Made by a program: the position numbers and the translations under genes
Part shown: piece after piece, positions 147 through 53,516 of the stretch
Layout of the letters: each line of letters begins with the position of its first letter
Numbering within the stretch: position 1 is the first letter of the stretch
The notes under the pieces: model-generated
What the model saw: only the letters and a program-made list of their open reading frames with translations
What the model was told of the DNA's origin: nothing
Databases searched by the model: none
From: a virus
DNA: 64,000 nucleotides
Direction: 5' to 3' (one strand)
Virus record (IMG/VR): IMGVR_UViG_3300020371_000004
Location: 1 to 64,000 of that record

Positions 147-452
147 ATGACTAAACGAGTAAAGGATTTAATTAGTGAACTCGAACTATTAAATCCGAAT
201 GAATCAATCTTTTGTTTATACTATACAAAGGATGATGTAAAAAAGTTAGAATACTATTGCACTGATTGTTATCCTTATACTGATGAACTAGCAGAGCAGA
301 CGATTAGTAAACTAACTGAAGATGGTGATGTAAAGAATACAGTAGACAAGTTAGTTACTAATACAATGAGAGAAGATACTAGTTATCTCGTACAATCAGA
401 ATGTAAGTATGATAGTGATAACATGGTATTAAATGACTCTCCGAGTTACTAA
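147..452 (+). CDS. hypothetical protein, 101 aa, acidic
   Basis: ORF track; plausible composition; co-directional with the upstream partial ORF. Confidence 0.65.
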   Translation: MTKRVKDLISELELLNPNESIFCLYYTKDDVKKLEYYCTDCYPYTDELAEQTISKLTEDGDVKNTVDKLVTNTMREDTSYLVQSECKYDSDNMVLNDSPSY

Positions 453-462
453 AAAGTGCATC

Positions 463-553
463 TGTGGAAAAACTTGTGGAAAAACAATCATTAAATAAAT
501 GGTTAAAAAAACATAGTTGCGTGTTTTATGTTTTCCACAGAAGGTGTTGAAAA
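463..553. repeat. DnaA-box cluster 1
   Basis: TGTGGAAAA at 463-471 and 475-483, TTTTCCACA at 531-539, one-mismatch TGTTGAAAA at 545-553; TT(A/T)TNCACA is the DnaA box consensus. Confidence 0.7.
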
Positions 554-625
554 AGTATATAAATACCCTGTTTTATCTTCGTTATTATGTTCTAAACCCC
601 TCTGGTTATTGTTATCTAAGACCGC

Positions 626-654
626 AGTATATCATGAGTTGACAAAAAAGTCAA
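626..654 (-). promoter_or_regulatory. sigma70-type promoter firing leftwards
   Basis: Minus strand TTGACT (654-649), 17-nt spacer, TATACT (631-626) with an extended -10 TGn. Confidence 0.65.
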
Positions 655-674
655 GAAAATTTCTGAAACTTTTT

Positions 675-843
675 GAGTCTCACACATATTACTCGTCTTA
701 TATAAACCTCAGTAAGACTCTAACATTTTATGAGTCCTCTGAGTCTCACTGATTCGTCCATTCTTATGCGAAACTCACTGGTCTCACAGAACTTATGAGT
801 CTCAGACCACTCGAAAATTCGTCCACTGGACACAGTAGTCTCA
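675..843. repeat. iterated GAGTCTCA-like motif
   Basis: GAGTCTCA at 675, 741 and 797; variants TGGTCTCA at 779, TAGTCTCA at 836, TGAGTCCT at 731. Confidence 0.6.
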
Positions 844-935
844 TTGTTTTCGGTGTAGACTACTAGGGTGGTTTTGAGGGAGGGAAGAATTACACAGCAC
901 TATGTGATAATAATTACACAGTGAGTTCGTGTTAG

Positions 936-1001
936 TTTTCCACAGGCAAAGTATTAGTTATCCACAGACCCTGTGGAAAAGTATTATAAACCTGTGGAAA
1001 A
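936..1001. repeat. DnaA-box cluster 2
   Basis: TTTTCCACA 936-944, TTATCCACA 958-966, TGTGGAAAA 972-980 and 993-1001 (two forward then two reverse). Confidence 0.7.
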
Positions 1002-1103
1002 CTTTATACCTGGGGAGGGGGTTTATATTACTAATACACAGTGAGTTTCTGATTGTTTATATACAGCAGTACTACTCACAAACACTCCGAGGGTTTCTAA
1101 TAC

Positions 1104-1132
1104 TTTACAGATTGCCCTTCGTGTATTATAAT
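1104..1132 (+). promoter_or_regulatory. sigma70-type promoter firing rightwards
   Basis: TTTACA 1104-1109, 17-nt spacer, TATAAT 1127-1132. Confidence 0.55.
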
Positions 1133-1467
1133 AAAACAGTGTTGTTTAATTATAATTAAGTAGTACTGGTTAATTCTTATACCCACGGGGGGGTTTATAA
1201 TAACAATTACTTAGTGAGTTCGTGATTGTTATTATACAGCACTAAATGACAGTAACCCTACGGGGGGTTAGGTTTTTTATAAAAACCGATGGGTCCCCCT
1301 AACCTACAAAAGTATGCATCCACGAGACCTTTACCGTCTCACAAAAAAATTTTCCGAGGGGAAAAACGGGTCTCCGAGGTCCGTTCAAGAAAAAAAATTC
1401 CGAGGGGGGAAAAGGGGTTAAAAACCCCGTCAGTGCTATATAACGGAGAATAGAAATTTCTAAAAGA

Positions 1468-3812: not shown

Positions 3813-4214
3813 ATGGCACGAAAGGTCTCTAGGGCATTTAAGGATATTAGTTTATCTTTTATAAAACACCCCGTTACAAATGATATTTTGGCAATCAAAA
3901 ACGAGGATGCCATCAAGAGATCTGTCGTAAATCTGGTACGGACTCAAATTGGTGAGAGATTTTTTGAACCTCTCATTGGAACTTCATTGGAAGGTTCATT
4001 ATTTGAATTATCTACCCCAGAAATTAGCATTTCATTGGAGAGTGAGATAAGAGTTCTACTCGATAACTTTGAACCACGTATCAATATTAGAGATATTCGA
4101 GTAGAACCATCATCAGATGACTATGAATTGAACGTAACTTTAACTTATGACATCGTTGGTCTTGCAATACCTAGACAAAACATCGAGTTTCTTTTACAAC
4201 CAGCTAGGATATAA
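3813..4214 (+). CDS. gp25: baseplate wedge subunit gp25
   Basis: FKDISLSF..HPVTNDI, AIKRSVVNLVRTQIGERFFEPLIG, FEPRI: gp25/GPW family; directly precedes gp6. Confidence 0.92.
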   Translation: MARKVSRAFKDISLSFIKHPVTNDILAIKNEDAIKRSVVNLVRTQIGERFFEPLIGTSLEGSLFELSTPEISISLESEIRVLLDNFEPRINIRDIRVEPSSDDYELNVTLTYDIVGLAIPRQNIEFLLQPARI

Positions 4215-6103
4215 TGTCGTTCAATCAATTTACAAACTTAGACTTTGATGATTTAAAGTCACAAATTAAAGACTACCTAAGAACAAACAGTAATTTTACT
4301 GATTTTGACTTTGAGGGGTCTAATTTTTCAGTATTGATTGATATTTTAGCATATAACTCATACATTACTGCGTTCAATACGAACATGTCAGTAAATGAGT
4401 CCTTTTTGGATAGTGCTACATTACGAGAAAATGTAGTATCACTTGCTAGAAATATTGGATATGTTCCTCGTTCAAAGAGAGCAGCAAAAGCAAAAGTCAG
4501 TTTTACTGTTGACACTGCTGGATTTTTAGATGTAAGGTCTGTAACGTTAAAAGCAGGTGTGGTTGCACTTGGTGCAATGGCATCGGGTAGTTATATATTC
4601 TCAGTACCAGAAGATATCACTGTTCCTGTTGATGTTAATGGAGTAGGAACTTTTAGTAATATTGATATTTTAGAGGGAACATATCTCACTAAAAACTTCA
4701 CCATGGATGACTCTCAACCAAACCAGAGATTTGTCATTCCTAACTCAGATGTAGATTCAACATCAATTCGTACATTTATCAGTGATTTAACGAACGAAGA
4801 ATATACTCTGTATTCAAATATTTTAAATATTGACAACACATCAAAGATTTTCCTCATCCAAGAGGTTGAGGATGAGAAGTATGAACTTGTATTTGGTGAT
4901 AATGTCTTTGGTAAGAAACCAAATACTGGAAGTTCTATCTTTGTAAGTTACATTATCACCAATGGTAAGGATGGAAACGGTGTTTCTAACTTTACATTCT
5001 CTGGAATTATAGAAGATAACAACCAAAACAGAATCACCACGGGTATCTCTAGAATTTCAACCATTCAATCATCAGAAAATGGTGATGATATTGAAAAAAT
5101 TGATAGTATTAAGTACCTCGCACCTAGGGTTTATTCGTCCCAGTACAGGGCAGTAACAGCAAATGACTATAAGGGTCTAATACCTACTATCTTCCCCAAT
5201 GTAGAGGCAGTGAGTGCCTATGGTGGAGACGAATTAGACCCACCAGAGTATGGAAAAGTGTTCATCTCCATCAAACCAAGGCAAGGTAAGTTCCTTTCTA
5301 AGGTTACCAAGGAACAAATCAAAAAGGACTTGAAGCAATATACAATTGCAGGTATTAAACCTGAGATTGTTGACCTCAAATACCTGTTTGTTGAACTCAA
5401 TACCAGTGTTTACTACAATAGAAGTGCTATTGCAGACGTAACAGCACTGAGAAATCAGGTAATTAGTACTTTGGACTCATATGGAAAGTCATATGACCTG
5501 AATAACTTTGGTGGAAGATTCAAATATAGTAAAGTGGTTGCATTGATTGATGATATTAACCCAGCAATCACGTCAAACATTACTACATTGAAGATAAGAC
5601 GTGATTTACAACCAGTTTTTGGTTCTTTTGCTACTTATGAGATTTGTTTTGGTAATGCTTTCCACATTAAGAAGAAAAATGACGCAGATGACCGTGGATA
5701 CAACATCAAATCCAGTGGATTTAGAATTGAAGGAGTTGATGGTGTAGTTTATATGAGTGATGTTCCTACTGATTCTGAAAAAGGTTCTATTTTCTTCTTC
5801 ACTTTAGTTGATAACGTACCATTTATTATTAAAAATAATGCAGGTGTTATCTACTACAAAAAAGGTGAGATTTTATTAGACACTGTTTCTATTGTAGCAA
5901 CAGAAAGTCCTAATGGTGTTGAAATTGAGGCAATACCAGAGTCAAATGATGTCATCGCATTGAAGGATATATACTTAGACCTAAGTATGGAGAAATTAGT
6001 CGTCAACATGGTTGAAGATAAGATTTCTTCTGGAGAGAATACTTCCGCAACAGAGTATATCGTAACATCAAGCTACGCAAACGGATCAGTATATACAAGA
6101 TAA
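4214..6103 (+). CDS. gp6: baseplate wedge subunit gp6
   Basis: LDFDDLKSQIKDYL, FTDFDFEGSNFSVLIDILAYN, ESFLDSATLRENVVSLARNIGYVP, QYRAVTANDY. Confidence 0.95.
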   Translation: MSFNQFTNLDFDDLKSQIKDYLRTNSNFTDFDFEGSNFSVLIDILAYNSYITAFNTNMSVNESFLDSATLRENVVSLARNIGYVPRSKRAAKAKVSFTVDTAGFLDVRSVTLKAGVVALGAMASGSYIFSVPEDITVPVDVNGVGTFSNIDILEGTYLTKNFTMDDSQPNQRFVIPNSDVDSTSIRTFISDLTNEEYTLYSNILNIDNTSKIFLIQEVEDEKYELVFGDNVFGKKPNTGSSIFVSYIITNGKDGNGVSNFTFSGIIEDNNQNRITTGISRISTIQSSENGDDIEKIDSIKYLAPRVYSSQYRAVTANDYKGLIPTIFPNVEAVSAYGGDELDPPEYGKVFISIKPRQGKFLSKVTKEQIKKDLKQYTIAGIKPEIVDLKYLFVELNTSVYYNRSAIADVTALRNQVISTLDSYGKSYDLNNFGGRFKYSKVVALIDDINPAITSNITTLKIRRDLQPVFGSFATYEICFGNAFHIKKKNDADDRGYNIKSSGFRIEGVDGVVYMSDVPTDSEKGSIFFFTLVDNVPFIIKNNAGVIYYKKGEILLDTVSIVATESPNGVEIEAIPESNDVIALKDIYLDLSMEKLVVNMVEDKISSGENTSATEYIVTSSYANGSVYTR

Positions 6104-15351: not shown

Positions 15352-18300
15352 ATGAGAACAGTACCAGGATCAGGAGCACAATTTACTCCAATATTTAACT
15401 CCGACTATGGTGTAGAGTCCTTCATTGTAGGGGCTGGTGGAACAGATTATGATCCAAATGACCCACCAAAGATTGAGATTGATGAAACGAATGTACCTAT
15501 ACAAGAGGGTGTATTTTTTCCTATCATTAGGAATGGTGAAATCGTAAGGATTGCAGTATTAGAAAAAGGATTTGGATACTCACCACTTATTCTTGCTGGT
15601 GGCAGAAAAGTTGGTATCGCAACAACTTCATTTGTAGAGAGTTCTCTTCTTGTTAGAACTGGTGTTGGAACTGAAGTTTCTGTCTCTGTTGCAAGTACTG
15701 ATTCTCATGTAATCATGGCAGTTGAGGGTAGTGAAGGTTCTTCTATCCTTGAAAATGGTTACAATAAAACAATCACACAATCTGGTTATGCTGGAACATC
15801 AGCACCTGTTGTTCCAGATGGTAGTAGCAATCAAAATGCATTTTACGGGTTTACTCATCCATTTGAATCTTATGCAACCAGTGGTGTAGGAACTGGTTCT
15901 AAGTACAATGTATTCATTGTTTATGACTCTGGCACTGGTAATGCAATATCAACATCAATCGTTCTTAGAGAGGGTGGTAATGGGTATGCAGTAGGGGATA
16001 CTGTGTCTATTGCAGGAACCTATATGGGTGGTCAAACTCCTGCTAATGACCTTACATTTACGGTAAGTGCTGTTGCAAATACAAGAATTCCAGCACAAGC
16101 AAATGTAGTATATTCTGACTTGGAAGCAGAAACTATAGTTGGTTCTGGAACAAGTGCAATATTTGAGATTTCAAGAGATGGTCTTGGTGATATTACCGAT
16201 ATTAGTGTAACTAACGGTGGTCGTGAATATGAAATGACCAGTCTGCTGAAGATTTTAGGAACAGCAGTTGGTGGTGTAACACCTCAAGATGATATTTTCC
16301 TTTCACCAAAGGTTCTTGGTGCAGATAAGTTACCACAAAAATTATATGTTAGAAAGTTAGATAATAATACGTTCACAGTTTCGGGTCTATCTACATCATC
16401 AAAACTTGATATCACCTCTGTTGGTGAAGGAACTCATACTCTTGAGTATGAAGATTCAAATGAAAGTAGTATAATTTCCATTGATAATATAGTACAAAAT
16501 CCTCTCTATAGGAGAGACCTTTCTGTAGGATTGGCACAGACAGTTGGATATACAAGTAGTACGATTTATCTTACTGGAATAAGTTCAATCACTGTTGCAG
16601 ATACCATTCAGGTAGGTTCCGAATTCTTTAAAATTAATACTATTGGTCTTGGTGCTACAAACGAGTTTGGAGTAACTAGAGGGTACTTGGGTACTAGAGT
16701 TGATTACCATGCTGTTGGAACGGCAGTAACTATCCATAGAGGGGATTATAATATTGTTAATGATGAAATTCACTTTACTACTGCACCATATGGTCCAGTA
16801 GGACCAGAAGGATTAAAGGTCAACTCAACATTTAGTGGAAGAGCATTTAGTAGAAGGTTTGATCCAGGAACTCCAAATGATAGAAACGTCATCTTTGATG
16901 ACCTGTCAACACAATTTGTTGGTGCGTCATCAACTGAGTTTGTATTGAGAACAAATGAGGAAAGAATTGTTGGCATCTACACAGATACAAATACAGTTTT
17001 AGCAAGTGGAATTGATGTTAATAATAATCCATTAGTATTCATCAATAATGTTCCACAGATTTCAGGAACTGATTTTACTGTTGATAATGACAACGATGGT
17101 AATAATAGAATAAGATTCCTTACTGGAACACCTTCTGCTGGTAGAATTGTTAGAACTGGATTAACTAGTGGTACTGGTTATGCTCCATTAATTGGTGCTG
17201 GTGCAACTGTAACAATTACTGGTGGTCAGATTACTGATATTCATCTAAGAGGTTCTGGTAGTGGATATAGAAATCAACCAGAAATCTCTTTAAGTGCTGC
17301 TGCAGGTGCAGGTGCTGCATTTACTTGTACTGTTGGTGCAGGAGGAACAATATCATCTATCAGTGTTGTAAATGCTGGTGCTGGTTATACTGCTGGTGCA
17401 GAAGTTAATATTGGAATTCCATCAAACTATTTCTCTGTTCCACTGGTCTATGCCAATGGTTATACTGGAAATGGAGAGGGTGCTAAAGCAGATTTACAAG
17501 TTGGTAATAGTGGTGACATAATTTCGTTTATGATGTCAGACCCTGGTGAATTCTATAGAGTTCAGGATGTTTTAACTCCAGATACATCATCTAATGGTTT
17601 AGTCACTTCAACTTCTGGAACCTTTACAGAGTTCTTAGTTGAAGTTGAAGATATCATGACTGACAAGTTTAGTGGATTCTATCCTGGTCAATTTATTCAA
17701 TTTGATAATATTGAAAGATTCTTCAATGGTTCAAAGAGGAAGTTTACCCTAACTGTTTCTCAAGGAGGAGAAACAGAAATTTTGAGTCTTAAAATAGACC
17801 CAACAAGTGACATGGATTTGGCACAAAACATGTTTGTGTACATTAATGATATTCTCCAAGCACCAAACCAGTCATATGATTTTGATGGATCTAGAATCGT
17901 ATTTACTGAACCACCAGTGCCAAATTCTAAATGCACAATTTTGTATTATAGAGGTTCTGACTTAGATGTTGAGCAGGTAGACCCACCAAGAACAATTAAA
18001 GAGGGTGATGGTGTTCAAATTGGAGATAATGTTTTAGATCCAAAGGATAGACCACAGTTTGAACGTATTGTTAAGAAGATTATTTCTTCAAACTCACTAG
18101 ATACATTTACATATGATAGTATTGGAATCAATACAGATCCAACTGCCGAACGTCCTATAAGATGGACAAAACAGACAGAAGATAAGATTATTAATGGTGT
18201 TCTTTACTCTAAAGCTAGACCAGACCTTAAATCTCGTGTAGAACCTACTGCAAAGTTAATTAAAACATTAACTCCTGGTGCAAACGAAATTTATGTTGAT

Positions 18301-20205
18301 AATGCATATCCATTATTTGTTGATGTAGATGAGTTATCGGAAGATATTAACAATGTAAAAGTTGTTGATACGGGTGAGGTTAGAGCAGCAATTTCTTCAG
18401 CAACTGTTTCTGCTGCTTCTACAATATCTTCAATTTCAGTTATTGATGGTGGAATTGGATTCTATAGAAATTCAAGTCCTATAGTTGCTATTTCTTCTGC
18501 AGTTATAAGTAAGAAAGACCCCATTTTCGGTTGGGTTGGTATTTCTACTACCTCTGGTATTTCAACTACAAATACATACAGTGACATTGTAATTGGTAAA
18601 CCTATTGTTGCAGTTGGTTCTAGTGGTGCTCTTGGAATCTCAACTAATGGTTTTGAGTGGGCAGAAGAGTATATTGGTTATGGTGGAACAATCAACTTTA
18701 ACTCTGTTGCAGTTGCAGCAACATCTAGATTCTTTGCTGCAGGTGATAATCAGAAGTTGGTTGTTAATACTGGTGTTGGTACAGGATTCCCTAACCCTTG
18801 GACAGAGATTAAGTTACTGAAAGAGACTGTTGTTCTTGGTCTTCCACAACCAGTAATTACTTTTAGTCAATATAGTGGTGACTTTAAGTCTGTTTCACAT
18901 TCATCATTCCATGATACTAGTGTTGTTGTTGGTTCAAATAATGGTGTCTTCAGTGGAGTTGGTATTGGGACAACATCTTTCTTTGAACGAACACCTGGAA
19001 CTTTTGCTAACTTCAATGCAGTAGCAAATAATGGTGCTGTTTATGTTGCAGTTGGTGATGCTGCAACAATTATCCATTCTTCTGATGGTGGATTTATTTG
19101 GGCACAAATACCACCATTACCATCAACTAGAAACTTCTTAGATGTAATCTGGACAGGAACTCAGTTTGTATTGGTTGGTGAGCATGGAACCATCTTTACT
19201 TCAACTGCTGGAACTACAAATTGGAATAGAATTGTACCTAATATTGGTGATCACCTGCATAAGATTAAGTATGAATATGGTGTTTACGTTGCAGTAAACC
19301 ATGTTGGTCAAGTTCTGTTCTCATTAGACCTTTCTTATTGGACTTATAGAGATACAAATCAGACCCAAGCAGTTAGTGACTTGGCATTCATTCCAGTTCC
19401 ACCACCTGCATTCTCAAGACCTGCAGGTATGGATGTTGTAAATGAAGATGGTAGATATATTCTTGTTGGTGCTGGTGGAACAATTATGTATGCAGACCCT
19501 GTATACAATAGAGCAACAGCAACTGCAAACTTAGTTAATGGTGTGGTTGACAGTGTAGATGTTGATAATCCTGGATTTGGATATCTATCCAATCCACCAA
19601 TAATTATTGAATCGGGAACTACTCTTCAAGAAGAAATCTTCTCAATCAAAGCAGAGGGTGATTATGGTGAGATTGTTGAAGTTGGTGTCGGTAATTCATT
19701 CATTGATTTTAGACTTAAGTCTGAAGATTATGACAATGCTACCTTAGGAATTGGATATTCCTCACTTAATGTATTTGGTATCACTAACTCTCAGATTTCT
19801 GTAGGTGATTACTTCGTAATTACTGACAGCAATACCACAATTGGTGCTGGTCTCGCACTGACAGGAATTACGACTAGCACTGGTGGATTAAATAACTATG
19901 CAGAGTCTGTAGTTGGTGTTGCATATACAACTCTAGATGGTGTGTACAGAGCAGAAAGAGTTAGTGAAGCTTATGCGGGAATTGTTACTGTACGATGTAT
20001 GTTTGCCTTCCAGAATAATGCTGCCATTCAAGTTAATGTAAATAACAATACAAATGGTATCCATGGTAAATATTCCTGGGGAAGAATCCACGATTTCCAG
20101 AACAGAGCAGTGTTCTCACCAAAACACTTTACTGTTGATTTAAGTAATGGTCTCACTGGTCTTTCAACTTCCGCAGATGTCTTCAGAACGAGAGGTCTGA
20201 AGTAA
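15352..20205 (+). CDS. large virion structural protein, probably the C-terminal part of the cyanophage gp7-type giant; includes a BNR/beta-propeller-like region
   Basis: Shares ISVxNxGxGY repeats with ORF 6105; YVAVGDAATIIHSSDGGFIW-type propeller repeats; ends GLTGLSTSADVFRTRGLK just before gp8. Confidence 0.7.
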   Translation: MRTVPGSGAQFTPIFNSDYGVESFIVGAGGTDYDPNDPPKIEIDETNVPIQEGVFFPIIRNGEIVRIAVLEKGFGYSPLILAGGRKVGIATTSFVESSLLVRTGVGTEVSVSVASTDSHVIMAVEGSEGSSILENGYNKTITQSGYAGTSAPVVPDGSSNQNAFYGFTHPFESYATSGVGTGSKYNVFIVYDSGTGNAISTSIVLREGGNGYAVGDTVSIAGTYMGGQTPANDLTFTVSAVANTRIPAQANVVYSDLEAETIVGSGTSAIFEISRDGLGDITDISVTNGGREYEMTSLLKILGTAVGGVTPQDDIFLSPKVLGADKLPQKLYVRKLDNNTFTVSGLSTSSKLDITSVGEGTHTLEYEDSNESSIISIDNIVQNPLYRRDLSVGLAQTVGYTSSTIYLTGISSITVADTIQVGSEFFKINTIGLGATNEFGVTRGYLGTRVDYHAVGTAVTIHRGDYNIVNDEIHFTTAPYGPVGPEGLKVNSTFSGRAFSRRFDPGTPNDRNVIFDDLSTQFVGASSTEFVLRTNEERIVGIYTDTNTVLASGIDVNNNPLVFINNVPQISGTDFTVDNDNDGNNRIRFLTGTPSAGRIVRTGLTSGTGYAPLIGAGATVTITGGQITDIHLRGSGSGYRNQPEISLSAAAGAGAAFTCTVGAGGTISSISVVNAGAGYTAGAEVNIGIPSNYFSVPLVYANGYTGNGEGAKADLQVGNSGDIISFMMSDPGEFYRVQDVLTPDTSSNGLVTSTSGTFTEFLVEVEDIMTDKFSGFYPGQFIQFDNIERFFNGSKRKFTLTVSQGGETEILSLKIDPTSDMDLAQNMFVYINDILQAPNQSYDFDGSRIVFTEPPVPNSKCTILYYRGSDLDVEQVDPPRTIKEGDGVQIGDNVLDPKDRPQFERIVKKIISSNSLDTFTYDSIGINTDPTAERPIRWTKQTEDKIINGVLYSKARPDLKSRVEPTAKLIKTLTPGANEIYVDNAYPLFVDVDELSEDINNVKVVDTGEVRAAISSATVSAASTISSISVIDGGIGFYRNSSPIVAISSAVISKKDPIFGWVGISTTSGISTTNTYSDIVIGKPIVAVGSSGALGISTNGFEWAEEYIGYGGTINFNSVAVAATSRFFAAGDNQKLVVNTGVGTGFPNPWTEIKLLKETVVLGLPQPVITFSQYSGDFKSVSHSSFHDTSVVVGSNNGVFSGVGIGTTSFFERTPGTFANFNAVANNGAVYVAVGDAATIIHSSDGGFIWAQIPPLPSTRNFLDVIWTGTQFVLVGEHGTIFTSTAGTTNWNRIVPNIGDHLHKIKYEYGVYVAVNHVGQVLFSLDLSYWTYRDTNQTQAVSDLAFIPVPPPAFSRPAGMDVVNEDGRYILVGAGGTIMYADPVYNRATATANLVNGVVDSVDVDNPGFGYLSNPPIIIESGTTLQEEIFSIKAEGDYGEIVEVGVGNSFIDFRLKSEDYDNATLGIGYSSLNVFGITNSQISVGDYFVITDSNTTIGAGLALTGITTSTGGLNNYAESVVGVAYTTLDGVYRAERVSEAYAGIVTVRCMFAFQNNAAIQVNVNNNTNGIHGKYSWGRIHDFQNRAVFSPKHFTVDLSNGLTGLSTSADVFRTRGLK

Positions 20206-20221
20206 CTGTAAATTTGTCCAC

Positions 20222-20227
20222 TAAATA
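20222..20227 (+). promoter_or_regulatory. late promoter
   Basis: TAAATA 22 nt upstream of gp8. Confidence 0.65.
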
Positions 20228-20248
20228 AAAGAAAAGTATTCTAGTAAA

Positions 20249-21814
20249 ATGCCTGCGATAATTACTGAACAATTTAGGGTGATGAACGCCGAAACCTTCG
20301 TTAATAGTTTGGTTTCGGTAGGTAATACTGCTAACACTTATTATACTTTTATTGGTCAACCAAACAGTCTGAATGTTCAGGCAGGTGGTTCAGCAGATTG
20401 GAATAATGGACCTGCACCACTTGATGGATTTGAAGAAGAAAACTCCATCAAGGAAACGATTCTTGCTATGAAAAAGGTGACAAAGCAAGATGTTAGGAGA
20501 ATGATTAGAAAGGTGAACTGGATTTCTGGTTCTACCTATGAGATGTATCGTCATGACTACAACATCTACAATCAGACTCCTGTAACTAATCAACCAAATC
20601 TCTATTCTTCTAATTTTTATGTAATCAATGAAGACTTTAGAGTCTACATTTGTTTGCAGAATGGTACTGACCCAGAGAACCCAAAGGGAAGACCATCTTT
20701 TGACCAACCAACTTTCGTAGATTTGGAACCACGACCAGCAGGAACAAGTGGTGACGGTTATATCTGGAAGTATTTGTTTACCGTAAAACCATCGGAAATT
20801 GTAAAGTTTGATTCTATTGAGTTTATTCCTGTTCCTGAAGATTGGGGCACTAAAGGAGAAACTATTTCTACCAAGAACAATGCAATTGATGGTAAAGTAG
20901 AAATTATAACTATTACTAATAGAGGTATTGGTTATCAACCAATCTCAAAATCATTCACAAATATTCCAATCCTTGGTGATGGTGAAGGTGGAAAAGCAAC
21001 TATCACTGTTGACTCATTTGGTAAAGTTTCCGAAGTATTTGTTACTGATGGTGGTAGTGGATATACAAAGGGAATTATTGAGTTCAATCCAGGTGCTCCA
21101 GGAATTCCATCAGAATTATCTAACTCAGGTTCATTAGCAACTTTTAACGTAATTATCCCACCTAAAGGTGGTCATGGATATGATATTTACAGAGAACTTG
21201 GTGCATATAGAGTTTTAGTTTACTCACGTTATCTAACAGATGAGTCAAACCCAGATATTATCCTAGGAAACGACTTTGCTAGAGTTGGAATCATTAAAAA
21301 TCCAATGATTCTTGGTAGTGATACGGAAAGACTTACAACAGGTGAAGTAAGTGCATTAAACTCTTTAAAACTTTCTGGAGTTACTACACAAACAACATAT
21401 CCAGTTGATTCTATTATCACTCAAACTACTGGTTTGGGTGTAACTGCTATTGGTTTTGTTGCTTCTTGGGATGATGTGACAGGTGTTCTCAAATATTATC
21501 AACCTGTTGGACTAGCAACTGAAGGTGTTAACTACAAGATTAATAAGTTCTCGTCATCCATTGCTGGTGGTGGTTCATTTAGTATTAATTGCCCTAAGGT
21601 AGTTGGTCCAGCACTCAGTATTGATACGGACTTTACGGGTATTAGTACCGTAATAAATAATAAGACATATCAGCTGGGCAGCAATTTTGTGTCTGGAATT
21701 TCATCAGCAGAGTATAACAAAAAGTCTGGTGAGATAATTTATATTGACAACAGAAGGGCAATTCCAAGGTCCACAAGCCAAAAAGAAGATATTAAAATCG
21801 TATTGGAGTTCTAA
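20249..21814 (+). CDS. gp8: baseplate wedge subunit gp8
   Basis: MPAIITEQFRVMNAETF, YEMYRHDY, FRVYICLQNG, DGYIWKYLFT, SGEIIYIDNRRAIPRS..QKEDIKIVLEF. Confidence 0.92.
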   Translation: MPAIITEQFRVMNAETFVNSLVSVGNTANTYYTFIGQPNSLNVQAGGSADWNNGPAPLDGFEEENSIKETILAMKKVTKQDVRRMIRKVNWISGSTYEMYRHDYNIYNQTPVTNQPNLYSSNFYVINEDFRVYICLQNGTDPENPKGRPSFDQPTFVDLEPRPAGTSGDGYIWKYLFTVKPSEIVKFDSIEFIPVPEDWGTKGETISTKNNAIDGKVEIITITNRGIGYQPISKSFTNIPILGDGEGGKATITVDSFGKVSEVFVTDGGSGYTKGIIEFNPGAPGIPSELSNSGSLATFNVIIPPKGGHGYDIYRELGAYRVLVYSRYLTDESNPDIILGNDFARVGIIKNPMILGSDTERLTTGEVSALNSLKLSGVTTQTTYPVDSIITQTTGLGVTAIGFVASWDDVTGVLKYYQPVGLATEGVNYKINKFSSSIAGGGSFSINCPKVVGPALSIDTDFTGISTVINNKTYQLGSNFVSGISSAEYNKKSGEIIYIDNRRAIPRSTSQKEDIKIVLEF

Positions 21815-21820
21815 AGTCAA

Positions 21821-24800
21821 ATGCCACAAAATACTAATTTAAATGTATCTCCATACTTTGATGATTTTGATTCCGAAAAGAATTATCAAAGAGTTCTATT
21901 TAAACCAGCAACTCCACTTCAGGCAAGAGAACTAACGACTTTACAATCCATTCTTCAGAATCAGATTGAAAAGTTTGGACAGCACTTCTTCAAAGAAGGT
22001 TCTGTTGTTATTCCTGGTCAAATTGCATACGATTCTCAATATACTTCTGTCCAAATTGATGAGTCACACCTTGGTGTTCCTGTATCTCTTTATATTCAAA
22101 GTTTAATTGGAAAGACAATTAAAGGTGAGAATAGTGGTGTAAGGGCAAAAGTTGAAAATTATATTACAAATACTGAATCAGAAAGAGACAACTATACACT
22201 ATATCTTAAGTATCAAAGCTCTAGTGATGATGACTTTTCTACAGAAAAGTTTGTTGATGGTGAGAACCTTGTAGCAGAAGAAGATATTTTCTATGGTGTT
22301 TCTGCTATCAGAGATGGTTCCACATTTGCAACTACAATTATCCAAAATTCTACAGCAATTGGTTCTGCTGTAAAGATTGCTGCTGGTGTTTACTTTGTTA
22401 GAGGATTCTTTGTAGAGGTAAATCCACAGACAGTAATTCTAGACCAATATACTAGCAATCCAACATATAGAGTTGGTCTATTAATTAATGAAGAATTGGC
22501 AGTTGCTTCCAATTCATATGAAGATTTATTTGATAATGCACAGGGATTTTCTAATTTCTCAGCACCTGGTGCTGATAGATTAAAGTTCGGATTAACTTTA
22601 ATCAAAAAAGAGATTGATGATTTCAACGATGAAAACTTTGTTGAACTTCTAAGAGTAGAGAATGGTGTTCTTAGACAATTTGTAAAAGAGAGCAACTATA
22701 ATTTAATTAGAGATGAGTTAGCAAGAAGAACTTATGATGAATCTGGTGATTACTATGTAAGACCATTTTCTCTTACTATAAGAGAGTCTCTAAATGATAG
22801 AGTAGGAAATAATGGTGTATTTAATGAGAATCAAGCAACTAAGTCTGGAAATTCTCCAAATGACAATTTAGGATCACTTCTTGTATCTCCAGGTAAAGCA
22901 GTAGTTCGTGGATATTCATTAGAAACCATTGATACGACTATTGTTGACTTTGAAAAACCAAGAACTACTGCAAAAGCAGAGAATCAGGCAATTCCATTTA
23001 GTGTTGGAAGACAAATTTTTGTCAATAATGTAAATGGTTCTGCTCCTGTTGGATTTGGTTCAACTTCCCAAATAGCACTATATGATACAAGAACATCACA
23101 GGAAGGTCTTGTATCTGGTCAGAAAATTGGTATTGCAAGACTATATGATTTAAAGTTAAGAAATGCTAGTTATGAAGGTGCTAATACTCAATTTGAAGCA
23201 TCTTTATATGATGTTCAGACATATACTGTATTGCGTCTAAATGCTACAACAAACTTATCCAAATCAACATATATTGAAGGAAACTCTAGTGGTGCCAGTG
23301 GTTATGTTGTAGAAGATGTAGTAGCAACAGACTTAGTAAAACTATACCAAGTTTCTGGAACATTTAAAAAAGAAGAATCGTTATCATTTAATGGTATTTC
23401 TGATGGAAGAATAATTACAAATATTCGTGATTATTCTTTAGGAGATGTTCATCAAATTGCATCTGACAACTATGCTGTAGGTCTTGGAACATTTACTGCA
23501 GACCCAGTTTTATCTCAAGTAACTATTCTCACAGAACCTGGTGCTCAATTCAGTATTACTGCAGAATCTCTAGGTGTCAGTACAGTAACAAGTTCTAGTC
23601 CAGCACCATTTGTTGGAATTCAAACTGGTGATATCGTATCTTATACTAAGCAAGGTTTTAGTATTCCAACCTTGAATAAAGTTATTGAAGTAACTCAAAG
23701 TGAAATTAAAATTGCAGAGACTACCGATTTAGCAAATATCAATGATGGTGCTCTTCCTTCTGTTGGAATCACTGCTAATGACTTTAAGAAAGTATCATTG
23801 GAAGTTCTTAATACTTCAAATGCTTTCTTGTTTGCTAAATTAAATCATAAAAATGTTGAGAGTCTTGATCTCAGCACGTCTTCCATTATACTTAGAAAGT
23901 CATATAGTGTAAACGTTGTATCAAATGCGTTCTCTGCAACTCTTGAATCTGATATTGATTTAACTTTAGAACCATTTGATGAAGAAGATTACAGTCTTGC
24001 ATATACTGCTGGTGATATTGAACCTCTTAATAACCAAAAGGTTGCTGTATCTGGAAGAACTATTGGTCTTAGCAACTTGACCCAAAATGGTCCTGCTATA
24101 CTTACAGTTACCTATAAGAAAGTAAACACCACCGAGAAAGCAAAGACATTTAATAGATGTGAAAGTCTAATTATCAATGGTTCTAACCAGACCTCATCTG
24201 GTGTTGGTAGAACTACTCTTAATGATGGTCTGATTAACAGAGAATATTATGGATTGAGAGTTCAGGATAGAGACATATCATTAAATGTTCCTGATGTTGT
24301 TAATGTTCTTGGAATTTATGAGTCTTCTACTGTAAATGACCCATCTCTCCCAAGAATACATTTTAGTGCGTTAAATTCAAGTATTGGAAACCTAATTAGA
24401 GGTGAAAGAGTCATTGGTTCAACCACTGGAGCAGTTGCAGCATTTGTTGAATCTGATGGCAATAATATTGCAGAAATTGTTTATCTGAATGAGAATAGAT
24501 TTGCACTCAACGAAGAGGTTACTTTCCAAGAAACCAATATTACTGGAACAATTAGTGCTGTTGATGTTGGTGATAAGAATATCAAAGAAAACTTTATTCT
24601 AGATAATGGTCAAAGACCAGAAATTTATGATTATGCTAGGTTGATTAGAAAGTCTGGAGTATCTGCTCCTACTAAAAAAATTAGAGTAATCTACAACTCA
24701 TATAGCATTTCTTCTTCATCGGAAGGTGACTTTGTATCTGTAGATTCTTATGGAAGAGACAGATACAGCAAAGATATTGCAACTATTAATGGTGTCAGAA

Positions 24801-52300: not shown

Positions 52301-53516
52301 TGGTGCAGAATCTCGTGCAATAGACCTCCCACCACAAAAGGGACTACTCAGATTTGCTGGTACTGCACCAGAAGTTTATATCCGTGGACCAGAACTTGGA
52401 GATGTATCTCTCCAACTCAAGTCTTCCGACGTATTTGTCAGATTCAAGCTCAGCCATATTTCGGATGGTTCCAGAATCCATGTCGATGGAGATGGAGCAG
52501 AAGCAAGAGTCAGACCATACGAAGGTTCTGGTACACTCTTTGGATTCAGTGGTGCAACGGAAGCTCGCACAATCGACCTCCCACCACAGGTTCCAACACT
52601 CTTCAGATTTGCTGGAAACTCTGGAGAAAGAGAAACCAATGCACATCTTGGTTCTGGTTCACTCTTTGGATTCGATTCTGCAACAGAAGTCAGAGTTGCT
52701 TCCCCAGAACTTTCTGGACTATTCAAAGTTCAGGGCACTGGTGCAGAAGCAAAAACCAAGGTATTTACTGGTTCTGGTGTATTCGATCTCAACACCAAGA
52801 CAGACGGACTGGATACTCTTGGCAAGCAAGTTTATATCAGTGCTCCAGAATCTACAACTGTCAATCCACCAGAACATACTCAGGTATTCACTTTCTCTGG
52901 TTCTGCTGTTGCTACAGAAGACAGAGCATATCAGGGAACTGGAACACTATTTGGATTTACAGGAGCAGCAGAATCCAGAGCAGTTGTACCAGATTCTACA
53001 GGTCTATTCAAGGTTCAGGGTTCTGGAGAAGAATCCAGAAGCAGAATTTACTCTGGAACAGGAAGAGTATTTGGATTTACTGGTGGTGCAGAGGCAACAG
53101 CAGTTACCGAAAATGTACCAGGTTCTCTCTTCAAATTTACTGGAGAAGTTACTGTTGTTCGCAGATTCCCACCACATGTTGGTTCTGGAACACTATTCTC
53201 CTTCACTGGTGCAACAGAATCTCAAACAATTGCACCACCAGTTGCAACACTCTTCGAGTTCAACGGAAACGTTGCAGAATCCAGAAGCAGAGTTTACACA
53301 GGTTCTGGAACACTCGTTACATTCAAGTCTGCAACTATCGCAAGACGTGTTCCATACGATGTTACTCAGGGACTTTTCAAACTTGTTGGAGCACTCAACG
53401 AATCTTTTGTTCCTTCTGGATACGTTGGTACGACTGGAGTTCAATTCATTGGGGCATCTACAGATAGAAGGATTGAATTTGAGTCACCAAAACCAACACA
53501 AATATACATCGTCTAA
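46395..53516 (+). CDS. giant repetitive virion protein (2373 aa) with an N-terminal reelin/BNR-like beta-sandwich
   Basis: EDLLFEYSTNGGSTWT..FRIRQ..DQWGVTAVTIG domain; many ~38-aa E....Y.G.GSLF.F.G..E repeats; ~333-aa super-repeats. Confidence 0.8.
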   Translation: MALFQYNLGSEIPFSSIDYGFINETPTTPSEDHGDLAVVAQTTIAPDDIVSTYSGSLSTVTITNTGSGVGEFGGFNVARHIKFTGAGTRAFTFAFDTSNREEITFSVIRGTDSNGGELPDSGEDLLFEYSTNGGSTWTGTQVLAAYNDTAFNNLNDVTVTLPTAARVSNAQFRIRQASNSGSNYDQWGVTAVTIGGEILTTEDYGFLTPARQTVPYGRLKIVQEFADDRLLRNSVGGIEFTLGGKANIFTLPIHVGRGFLRLDGKEFTRITLRYIGSGTFSHFGGSAEAVSNATPAQTPLFTVAGVATEKFGKGNYTATGQFSAFTGAAEVVSISGATRQDLFRIRGAAHDTHTENYVGEGRLFAVQGASEAFKVEEKASGLFSFKGTSKETIQSNNVVSVETQISGSGSESITPAVRPGSGEATFSGAITNEHVRFHQFGTGTLSSFSGTAETSNRVVFSYNESSVVNAETLDYGLITEGFADEPISNYANVPISTLANEVVSEFGRYPNREEFGHISIDPEQSIHTPGYNHVDYGYINTTNRFPFGKFQSEDGGDLTYESAQIGIRVRPITPGPTLRLEGTAGIFTLPIHKGEGYFRFEGKSVVRIRAVYYGSGKFSNFGGSAEATSNADSGRKILFRVAGDAHAVVRFVYIGEGSLFTFVSKTESTSVTEKPQALYKFTGSAVEKNTENYVGTGSLFTFVSSTDSTVINSAASGLFTFKGSGIEKNTENYVGQGSLFTFVSKSEATVVQSVAQTLFRFTGAITNEHVRFHQFGTGTFSAFSGTAYHERVAFDYNEDSIVNVRHDNYGLITEGSADQPISDFANDPISLYANEQVSEFGRFANREDFGHISIDPEQSINTHGHRHDDYGYINTTNRFPFGGFTFEDENEGVDTAGIRFQLRAPTSGTELRLQGQAEIYVLPVHIGGGITRFAGDATIRIRAVYYGSGKFSNFGGSAEAISNVDSGRQVLFRVSGDSHNTIRFVEVGTGSLFTFVSKTESTSVTEKPQVLYKFTGSAVEKNTESYVGKGSLFTFVSSTESTVINSAASGLFSIKGSAEEKNTEVYVGKGSLFTFVSKSEATVVQSKAQGLFKISGAITNEHVRFHQFGTGTFSTFSGTAYHERVAFDYNEDSIVNVDHENYGFITQGSADQPISDFANDPISLYANEQVSEFGRFSNREDFGHISIDPEQSVNTHGWNHIDYGYINTTNRFPFGGFTFDDGSVTSATSKLQVKLPVEGPVFQISGVSDNRVLPVIIGGGFTRLGGDALVKITAVWYGSGSVFSFVGGAEATSSTVPTEAPLLDFNGTARERFGKGNYDASGTFSTFSGAGETAIISNKADVLFDVNGTAIEKHTENYVGEGSLFGFVSATESTVINSAASGLFKFQGGAIEKNTENYVGTGSLFAFDSSTEATEVLSTASGLFKFSGAATNVQVRFHQFGTGSLFGFNGGAESVTFDYSCHGSIVNIGADNYGFITESVVDQTITDYANEQISTYANEVVSDFGIDPNQESFGHISIDPEQSINTHGWNHEDYGLITEPEGGNKFPCVHLKFGGERFNESRVFGYAGSGTFSTFSGAAEARAIVPPSKGLFKVHGSGGIIASLSHIGSGEIHIGDSGIDKFIKVQFSPPTTGVLFKFSGGLDVSGVNERPSDLKATFAEVGHAKLRIAGDAFTTFHLGHIGSGQLDINGNAIEKHTEAYVGSGSLFAFTGGAESFTVDLPEFATLFRFAGNAVEKNTENYVGTGSLFTFVSKTESTTSAEQPKVLFNIEGASVNRILFHYYGTGNFSTFGGAAEARAVTKEAGGLFTFSGNAPESITPAPHIGSGSLFTFVGKTEAFVASDDLVAPPLFKIGGDAIIGFSLGIIGRGGLDVLQKVTKLDVEGKNRFVGAQERRAINNPASVLFSIDGNVKIFFVFQETGGGFTRVAGEAFTEVTPRHTGRGKTSLHGEVTMSASLSHIGSGTIFGFVGGAESRAIDLPPQKGLLRFAGTAPEVYIRGPELGDVSLQLKSSDVFVRFKLSHISDGSRIHVDGDGAEARVRPYEGSGTLFGFSGATEARTIDLPPQVPTLFRFAGNSGERETNAHLGSGSLFGFDSATEVRVASPELSGLFKVQGTGAEAKTKVFTGSGVFDLNTKTDGLDTLGKQVYISAPESTTVNPPEHTQVFTFSGSAVATEDRAYQGTGTLFGFTGAAESRAVVPDSTGLFKVQGSGEESRSRIYSGTGRVFGFTGGAEATAVTENVPGSLFKFTGEVTVVRRFPPHVGSGTLFSFTGATESQTIAPPVATLFEFNGNVAESRSRVYTGSGTLVTFKSATIARRVPYDVTQGLFKLVGALNESFVPSGYVGTTGVQFIGASTDRRIEFESPKPTQIYIV
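47691..51050 (+). repeat. ~1-kb in-frame tandem super-repeat (4 copies of the core)
   Basis: (E/V)(H/Q)VRFHQFGTG anchors at 47691, 48696, 49695 and 50691 (periods 1005, 999, 996 nt); each copy contains FGHISIDPEQS. Confidence 0.9.

Follow-up and report, generated by a model that had tools for sequence, protein, structure and literature searches.

Phased arrays of host-type DnaA boxes in a gene-free region of a T4-like cyanophage contig as probable docking sites for the host initiator

The DNA analysed here (the window) comprises the first 64 kb of an 83,361-bp IMG/VR virus contig (G000, record IMGVR_UViG_3300020371_000004; CheckV completeness 39%). Near its left end lies a gene-free region with two clusters of boxes for DnaA, the replication initiator of the host. 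The box region is internal and located upstream of baseplate genes: T4-type baseplate and fibre genes follow downstream of it, including a gp6-like wedge gene at 4214-6103 (PHROG matches). A glycosyltransferase-like gene (1840-2592, 250 aa) has its closest named relatives in cyanomyoviruses of the Kyanoviridae, with identities of 87.6% to DSL-LC02, 86.4% to Sf-FS3 and about 82% to both P-SSM2 and S-SSM7. Public sequencing runs contained the stretch or part of it in 20 of the 24 rows listed, from 10 studies, with at least half of its words present in five rows. The 19 DNA runs with the stretch, all of them represented by Logan contigs, are labelled as marine or seawater metagenomes or carry no label.

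The first-pass annotation, made from the sequence alone, had called this region the only gene-free stretch of about 1 kb, and a survey of the whole contig agrees. Positions 453-1839 form the longest gap of the contig without an ATG-initiated open reading frame (ORF) of at least 80 aa (1387 bp vs 307 bp for the next one), and 753-1288 is its longest gap without an ORF of at least 40 aa. Small ORFs are present within the gap (517-642, 528-752, 720-833 on the minus strand, 929-1159, 1289-1453, and 1299-1505 on the minus strand). A Pfam search of two of them, 528-752 and 929-1159, gave no match, and conservation at the protein level was confined to a 98%-identical contig (L001), plus one marginal match; protein-coding content was therefore rejected as the explanation of the gap. 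The flanking small ORFs are conserved (1468-1611 in 28 loci, 1595-1756 in 14 loci), and searches of Pfam and PHROG assigned no function to them. An Rfam search at E ≤ 1 returned a single microRNA-family match, of 20.9 bits against a cut-off of 86 bits, and thus no known RNA family; blastn of 400-1500 against named phages, in a collection from which records close to this genome may be missing, gave nothing at E ≤ 1e-5.

Seven exact matches to the 9-mer TTWTCCACA were counted in the window, all of them in this region and arranged in two clusters, A and B (Table 1). They are exactly the seven sites reported at first pass, where the single-mismatch copy at 545 and the 12-bp distance between the first two boxes had also been recognised; both are present as described. 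The box at 958 is the sole representative of the TTATCCACA form among the seven. The rest of the contig (82 kb) contains one more exact box, at 79599. The latter falls outside the window and inside a 74-aa ORF (79542-79766) with two CxxC pairs (zinc-ribbon-like). Among the gaps of the contig without ATG-initiated ORFs of at least 80 aa, the one that holds this ORF is the second longest.

The box total per window is unremarkable, but the clustering is extreme. Shuffling of the whole window yielded a mean of 2.49 matches, and seven were reached in 2 of 100 shuffles. Markov models of orders 0-3 expect 0.023-0.042 boxes per 1016 bp, with a Poisson probability of about 7e-16 for seven or more (about 1e-13 after correction for windows), and 5000 dinucleotide shuffles of the region averaged 0.038 boxes with a maximum of two. 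A chance origin of the cluster was rejected on the basis of the shuffles and of the Markov/Poisson expectation. The comparison of motif frequency with expectation, which had been suggested at first pass, thus singles out this region, with seven boxes against 0.02-0.04 expected.

Table 1 Features of the region, with positions in the window
Feature	Position	Strand	Remarks
Non-coding control region	453..1467		Flanked on the left by ORF 147-452 and on the right by the conserved small ORF 1468-1611
Cluster A, tandem pair of boxes	463-471 and 475-483	-	Exact; TGTGGAAAA on the + strand; 12 bp start to start, 3-bp gap
AT-rich block between cluster A boxes, 47 bp	484..530		Conserved core TAAATAAATGGTTAAAAAAACATAG; assembly-graph junction in three studies
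Cluster A, box TTTTCCACA	531..539	+	Exact; 11-nt perfect inverted repeat with 461-471
One-mismatch box TTTTCAACA	545..553	-	14 bp from box 531, the modal convergent spacing
T4-late-like TATAAATA	558		Candidate, read by eye
Leftward sigma-70-like putative promoter, TTGACT-17-TATACT with TG (extended -10)	654..626	-	10/12 consensus match; faces the AT-rich blocks and cluster A
9-bp palindrome TGAGTCTCA, three exact copies plus variants	674, 740, 796 (674..804)		Between the box clusters; spacings 66 and 56 bp
ATTCGTCCA, two copies	752, 817		With the palindromes; second repeat family
D1 repeat, three copies	907-937, 1027-1057, 1200-1230	+	G-run precedes each copy; possible promoter/leader elements
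Cluster B, four exact boxes	936..1001		936(+), 958(+), 972(-), 993(-); spacings 22, 14 and 21 bp, the family-wide modal values
Rightward sigma-70-like putative promoter, TTTACA-17-TATAAT	1104..1132	+	11/12, consensus match only; 103 bp past the last box
Least stable 40-mer of the region, 85% AT	1124..1163		Overlaps the -10 hexamer of the rightward putative promoter
Hairpin followed by T-run	1253-1270		Between the third D1 copy and CCCTAACCTAC
CCCTAACCTAC, 11-mer	1297..1307	+	Single copy in the contig; conserved element
D2 direct repeat, two 38-nt copies, each with TTCCGAGGGG	1334..1418	+	Just 5' of ORF 1468

The distances between boxes follow the turns of the helix. Across all viral loci, tandem neighbours lie 11-12 bp apart in 23 of 68 cases and 21-22 bp apart in 24 of 68, and convergent neighbours 13-14 bp (22 of 124), 23-24 bp (48 of 124) or 33-35 bp (12 of 124) apart. 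The Rayleigh R at a period of 10.5 bp is 0.73 for tandem and 0.65 for convergent spacings; the convergent set had been selected by a gap length of 1-30 bp, and contigs that are related are non-independent, neither of which produces a 10-bp period. The spacings in the window (12, 22, 14 and 21 bp) fit the helical phase needed by a DnaA oligomer; phasing of this kind is expected where a single protein binds cooperatively along one side of the helix.

The motif TTTTCCACA is the cyanobacterial, 'species-specific' DnaA box according to an excerpt of PMC4674748, in line with the first-pass statement that it is the form typical of cyanobacterial origins. In the picocyanobacterial genome G012, which belongs to the family of a marine Synechococcus, locus L339 carries five exact boxes directly upstream of dnaN, for which all three beta-clamp Pfam domains were found. 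A G precedes all five of these boxes and follows four, with tandem spacings of 12, 22 and 12 bp; in the window, G precedes four of the seven and follows six, with tandem spacings of 12, 22 and 21 bp. Among 398 distinct viral box contexts, 63% have G before and 54% have G after the box, in genomes of about 36% GC. The 32 host boxes considered were picked by the tandem-pair pattern, and L339 is the only locus confirmed as dnaN-adjacent; the box cluster of L266 adjoins an ORF of the GCS2 family, not dnaN. Exact tandem TTTTCCACA pairs no more than 40 bp apart occur in only 9 of 61 picocyanobacterial host-family genomes (G003-G064), and the phage arrays are richer in perfect boxes than most of the host genomes sampled. 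Convergent box pairs were found in genome contigs of many phyla among the matches listed, so the pair itself is not specific to cyanobacteria.

Phage arrays and the cyanobacterial oriC thus share the same 9-mer, the preference for G on both sides, tandem spacings of 12 and 22 bp, mixed orientation and a density of 5-7 boxes per 100-150 bp. They differ in that the phage arrays have no adjoining dnaN or dnaA and show no similarity beyond the 13-14 nt around the boxes. A blastn-short search of 400-1500 against 13 cyanobacterial loci gave matches of 13-18 nt, those of 13-14 nt being located at boxes, along with a few non-box matches of similar E-value. Since the likeness to the host oriC ends so close to the boxes, the region is not captured host DNA, and a captured oriC fragment was rejected as its source. 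A search for PF08299, the DNA-binding domain of DnaA, matched the control genomes and gave nothing in G000 (39% complete) or in the complete relatives DSL-LC02 and DSL-LC03; as no phage-encoded domain of this kind was found, host DnaA is the obvious ligand.

Relatives of the locus were collected from IMG/VR through the neighbouring 250-aa gene (80 loci, 52 of them with at least 1500 bp of upstream flank). Clustered boxes (two to eight) are situated upstream of this gene in 11 of the 80, and at least two boxes are present at this locus in 9 of the 52. In an alignment of eight loci, the box at 972-980 is invariant in all eight at a mean column identity of 45%; the boxes are kept while their flanks drift apart. 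The tandem pair 463/475 is conserved in L008, L005, L019 and DSL-LC03. It forms part of a cassette in which two or three boxes are joined to the block TAAATAAATGGYTAAAAAAACATAG and to a putative promoter, TTGACA-17-TGnTAnnnT, that points leftward; this cassette recurs in L008, L005, L019 (partly) and DSL-LC03. The sequence of the AT-rich block 484-530 is conserved in the window, L008, L005 and DSL-LC03, and the same block occurs in L060 without a box within 70 bp (one of five distinct occurrences), so that the boxes look like an add-on to the cassette.

Beyond this locus, the convergent box pair was detected in at least 120 IMG/VR viral stretches. Among the matches listed, 119 box-bearing stretches were examined: 69 have at least three boxes within 600 bp, and 52 have homologues of gp25, gp6 or the glycosyltransferase near the boxes. 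As for named phages, DSL-LC03 contains 13 boxes, seven of them at 80123-80579, DSL-LC02 a box pair, Syn9 a pair at 52565-52597 and S-PM2 a trio at 19231-19264, within the third longest of its gaps without ORFs; no clustered boxes were found in Sf-FS3 or in a 239-kb complete contig. A 40-mer among the least stable 0.01% directly follows the three boxes of S-PM2, and a block among the least stable 0.48% follows the pair of Syn9. In the S-PM2 record (NC_006820), tRNA genes are placed at 17414-19333, and two of them coincide in part with the three boxes; ARAGORN found no tRNA in S-PM2 17200-22200 (L348), and the tRNA coordinates of the record look misplaced.

The region holds further elements besides the boxes. 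The leftward putative promoter faces AT-rich blocks at 549-588 and 479-518, the latter 40-mer being among the least stable 0.94% of the contig. As read from the alignment, L008 and L005 keep a TTGACA-17-TGnTAnnnT layout at the corresponding position, and DSL-LC03 has a weaker one. The block at 1124-1163 is within the least stable 0.04% of contig 40-mers. Terminator-like hairpins are enriched in the region (5 vs 1.1 expected). The CCCTAACCTAC element is present in 16 of the 52 relatives, 12 of which have no boxes, and also in 32 of the 119 box-bearing viral loci among the matches listed; its distance to the same downstream gene is 320-900 bp in relatives (1743 bp in one locus), independently of boxes.

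Several repeats are private to the region or largely restricted to it, and these are unevenly spaced (TGAGTCTCA three times, TTCGT six times, D1 three times). Three of the four contig copies of TGAGTCTCA are located here, and the kindred motifs GAGACTCA and GAGTCTCA were found in L022, L029, L006 and L027; a dimeric protein, of the phage or of the host, might bind these palindromes and ATTCGTCCA. The D1 sequence ACAGTGAGTT occurs nowhere else in the contig. TTCGT is strictly strand-biased within the module (578-1223), with six copies on the plus and none on the minus strand, at about ten times the density of the remaining contig. In the relatives L029, L022, L027, L006 and L009, TTCGT is present in 11-13 copies vs 0-2 on the opposite strand per 800-1000 bp, arranged as arrays of TTCGTTAT-like units that adjoin boxes. 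Marine relatives without boxes (L051, L069/L068/L037, L070/L040, L036, L013, L004) have other lineage-specific repeats upstream of the 250-aa gene: the motifs AACTGGCACA, CTCAGTTCAAAC and TGGTGGACA occur in one orientation, roughly one per small gene, and others of these repeats are tandem arrays of 22-23-bp units. The repeats of the box-less relatives resemble promoter or cassette elements of hyperplastic early regions.

Assemblies of public runs meet within cluster A. Logan contigs of runs X1, X3 and X7, from three studies, end or begin at 494-519, with loose ends into other sequence on both sides, and the bin 403-536 is two to five times deeper than its neighbours. Positions 494-1768 are near-identical in X1 and X3, and 494-1972 are about 95% alike in X7. 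The site at 494-519 looks like a mosaic junction in a block common to several co-occurring strains.

From the clustering, the phasing and the host-type grammar of the boxes, we infer strongly, with a probability of roughly 0.75, that the two phased arrays are docking sites for host DnaA. The reading we favour, albeit tentatively and at somewhat less than even odds, is that this docking module serves as a site at which DnaA helps to start the early, origin-dependent replication of the phage. Host DnaA would oligomerise on both arrays and would help to open the adjacent AT-rich blocks, 484-530 by cluster A and 1124-1163 downstream of cluster B; these blocks would be placed downstream of the leftward putative promoter (479-518, 549-588) or overlap the rightward one (1124-1163). 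The module may then be viewed as a T4-type promoter-plus-unwinding-element origin with a host-initiator add-on. Such an add-on would be dispensable, because many relatives are without it and T4-type phages also replicate by recombination.

The virulent T4-like group of the window has its own replisome genes, and the gp59 helicase loader is annotated in Syn9 and P-HM2. Iteron plasmids and P1-type origins combine Rep iterons with host DnaA boxes. The phage module is similar to them in having host boxes beside private repeats and an AT-rich block, but no Rep-like initiator gene was identified beside it and its repeats are not evenly spaced direct iterons. With the T4 origins oriF, oriG and oriE, as treated in an excerpt of PMC3016281, the module shares its non-coding nature, promoter-like sites facing AT-rich blocks, private repeats and dispensability among relatives, as with single T4 origins. 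In contrast, the T4 origins have no motif in common, their middle promoters require MotA, and the excerpted text describes no DnaA boxes there (PMC3016281). Cyanomyoviruses have neither motA nor asiA, according to an excerpt of PMC2984593. The wider proposition, that a widespread subset of T4-like cyanophages uses host oriC grammar (perfect GTTTTCCACAG arrays in helical phase on a promoter and AT-rich cassette) to fire an early theta-type origin via host DnaA, is conceivable and yet rather doubtful.

A number of observations weigh against an origin at this site. The arrays are lacking at this locus in 43 of the 52 relatives with enough flank and therefore cannot be the indispensable origin of the whole group; they are optional in it. 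The conservation that the first-pass annotation had proposed to look for accordingly holds for a subset of relatives, with an invariant box in the eight-locus alignment, and fails for the majority. Clustered boxes were also not found in P-HM2, S-CRM01 and S-RSM4. AT-rich blocks are only marginally more pronounced at 140 box clusters than at 345 control ORF-free gaps of the same loci (median z 1.99 vs 1.86; z above 2.5 in 26% vs 17%; Mann-Whitney p = 0.017). The block at 1124-1163 is only the sixth least stable distinct locus of the contig at 40 bp; at 60 bp it ranks second, and at 100 bp it is no longer among the first six. Promoter-like sites in 100-1900 are not enriched (4 vs 6.3 ± 2.5 in shuffles). 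The RNA-labelled run X20 contributes one 169-nt contig at 1416-1584, which as an assembled contig is uninformative on transcription, and its depth is near zero in two further bins of the gap.

Cumulative GC skew, another check named at first pass, gave no origin signal: it rises monotonically, with no switch at the boxes, in the contig and in the three complete relatives DSL-LC03, Syn9 and S-PM2. We treat this result as uninformative, because nearly all genes are on one strand and the test has little power. The extremes of detrended skew fall at 45 and 101 kb in Syn9 and at 111 and 149 kb in S-PM2, not at the boxes. T4-type replication is not known to need DnaA. The R-loop and recombination starts of T4 are run by phage proteins, as stated in an excerpt of PMC3016281.

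An alternative use of docked DnaA would be a transcription switch or roadblock, in which the bound protein represses, activates or blocks transcripts of the flanking putative promoters, among them antisense ones that run on into ORF 147-452; the early genes of the phage would then be expressed in step with the level or nucleotide state of host DnaA. The layout is suited to such a role, as cluster A would lie about 70-160 nt downstream of the inferred leftward start and cluster B about 100-200 bp upstream of the rightward putative promoter, and the abundance of terminator-like hairpins agrees with it. The small arrays of S-PM2, Syn9 and DSL-LC02 consist of two or three boxes, the typical number at DnaA-regulated promoters, and optional presence fits a regulatory add-on. 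We nevertheless regard the switch as unlikely, since seven to eight phased boxes exceed what promoter control needs and the promoters are consensus matches without enrichment.

Somewhat further from the evidence stands a DnaA sink or a datA-/DARS-like modulator of its nucleotide state: multiplying phage boxes would sequester DnaA or shift its ATP/ADP state, and host initiation would be shut down or deregulated. Perfect, tightly packed boxes are more numerous in the phage than in most of the host genomes examined, given the scarcity of tandem pairs in the latter (9 of 61), and with 24 exact boxes in a 1.9-Mb Synechococcus genome, tens of phage copies would be expected to outnumber those of the host. 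The trio of S-PM2, L005, L019 and DSL-LC03 has one box facing two, an arrangement that may be akin to the DARS core. Titration, however, would act only late, when host DNA is often degraded, and the conserved linkage to an AT-rich block and putative promoter would be superfluous for a sink. We know of no datA or DARS equivalent in cyanobacteria or phages. In E. coli, datA and DARS1/2 are non-origin clusters of three to six DnaA boxes, and extra copies of DARS are deleterious (excerpt of PMC5835720); like the phage arrays they are box clusters, with orientation that matters and an action on DnaA itself, but they are chromosomal and depend on IHF or Fis (same excerpt). Neither datA nor DARS is known outside E. 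coli and its relatives, and altogether the sink appears quite improbable. The first-pass proposal, that the phage either recruits host DnaA for an origin or carries a datA-like sink, stands in that the sites are real, of host type and arranged like a host oriC; origin, sink and transcription switch are not told apart by these data.

The 9-mers might also be iterons for a phage-encoded DNA-binding protein that are DnaA-box-like by resemblance. In an excerpt of PMC3016281, T4 oriE is described as having iterons. The region does hold other private repeats (the TGAGTCTCA palindromes, strand-biased TTCGT, D1 and D2), and box-less relatives carry other lineage-specific motifs upstream of the same gene. 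Those motifs, however, keep to one orientation and one copy per gene, and the boxes are clustered in two orientations. The host-identical 9-mer has stayed unchanged across loci that retain 45% mean column identity and in at least 120 viral stretches, its flanking G and 12/22-bp grammar match the dnaN-proximal array of the host, and the search of the phage records G000, DSL-LC02 and DSL-LC03 gave no DnaA domain IV, all of which makes this reading highly improbable. Tethering or pausing of incoming phage DNA at membrane-bound DnaA, a T5-like use suggested by the 3-bp gap of the pair 463/475, merits next to no credence. T4-type genomes are circularly permuted, so that injection cannot be stopped by one fixed site in their interior; moreover, the model for T5 is itself unproven and the arrays are optional here.

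The T5 case, known as the injection-stop (iss) region, is nonetheless a close phage counterpart in form. According to an excerpt of bioRxiv 10.1101/866236, 25 of 25 T5-like phages compared keep about eight DnaA boxes, in pairs 3 bp apart, within a repeat-rich untranslated region, and the authors judge a role in replication unlikely. The common ground is a virulent phage with host-type boxes in pairs with a 3-bp gap, within a large untranslated region rich in repeats and palindromes, and with a function that is unproven (same excerpt). The T5 region differs in being located in the first-entering terminal repeat, with origins elsewhere, whereas the present one is internal, T4-like and limited to 9 of 52 relatives at this locus.

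Host-initiator sites on mobile replicons are already known; here they occur in a T4-type phage. Our literature search found no description of DnaA boxes in cyanophages or other T4-type phages. The replication origins of T4-like cyanophages, which are among the most abundant viruses of the ocean, are unmapped, and for Syn9 an excerpt of a review reports only a predicted single theta origin (PMC2984593). An array of host-initiator sites represents a concrete, mutable origin candidate, and since arrays are present in the model phages S-PM2 and Syn9, the question is open to direct bench test. Should the arrays act as a sink or reactivator, they would constitute a DNA-only device of host takeover. 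If host DnaA fires an origin at this site, a T4-type phage would for the first time be seen to have an origin that depends on the host initiator, and its replication would be coupled to the replication state of the host. In any case of DnaA recruitment, phage replication or early transcription would be linked to the cell-cycle and energy state of the host, which may bear on latent period and burst size at sea.

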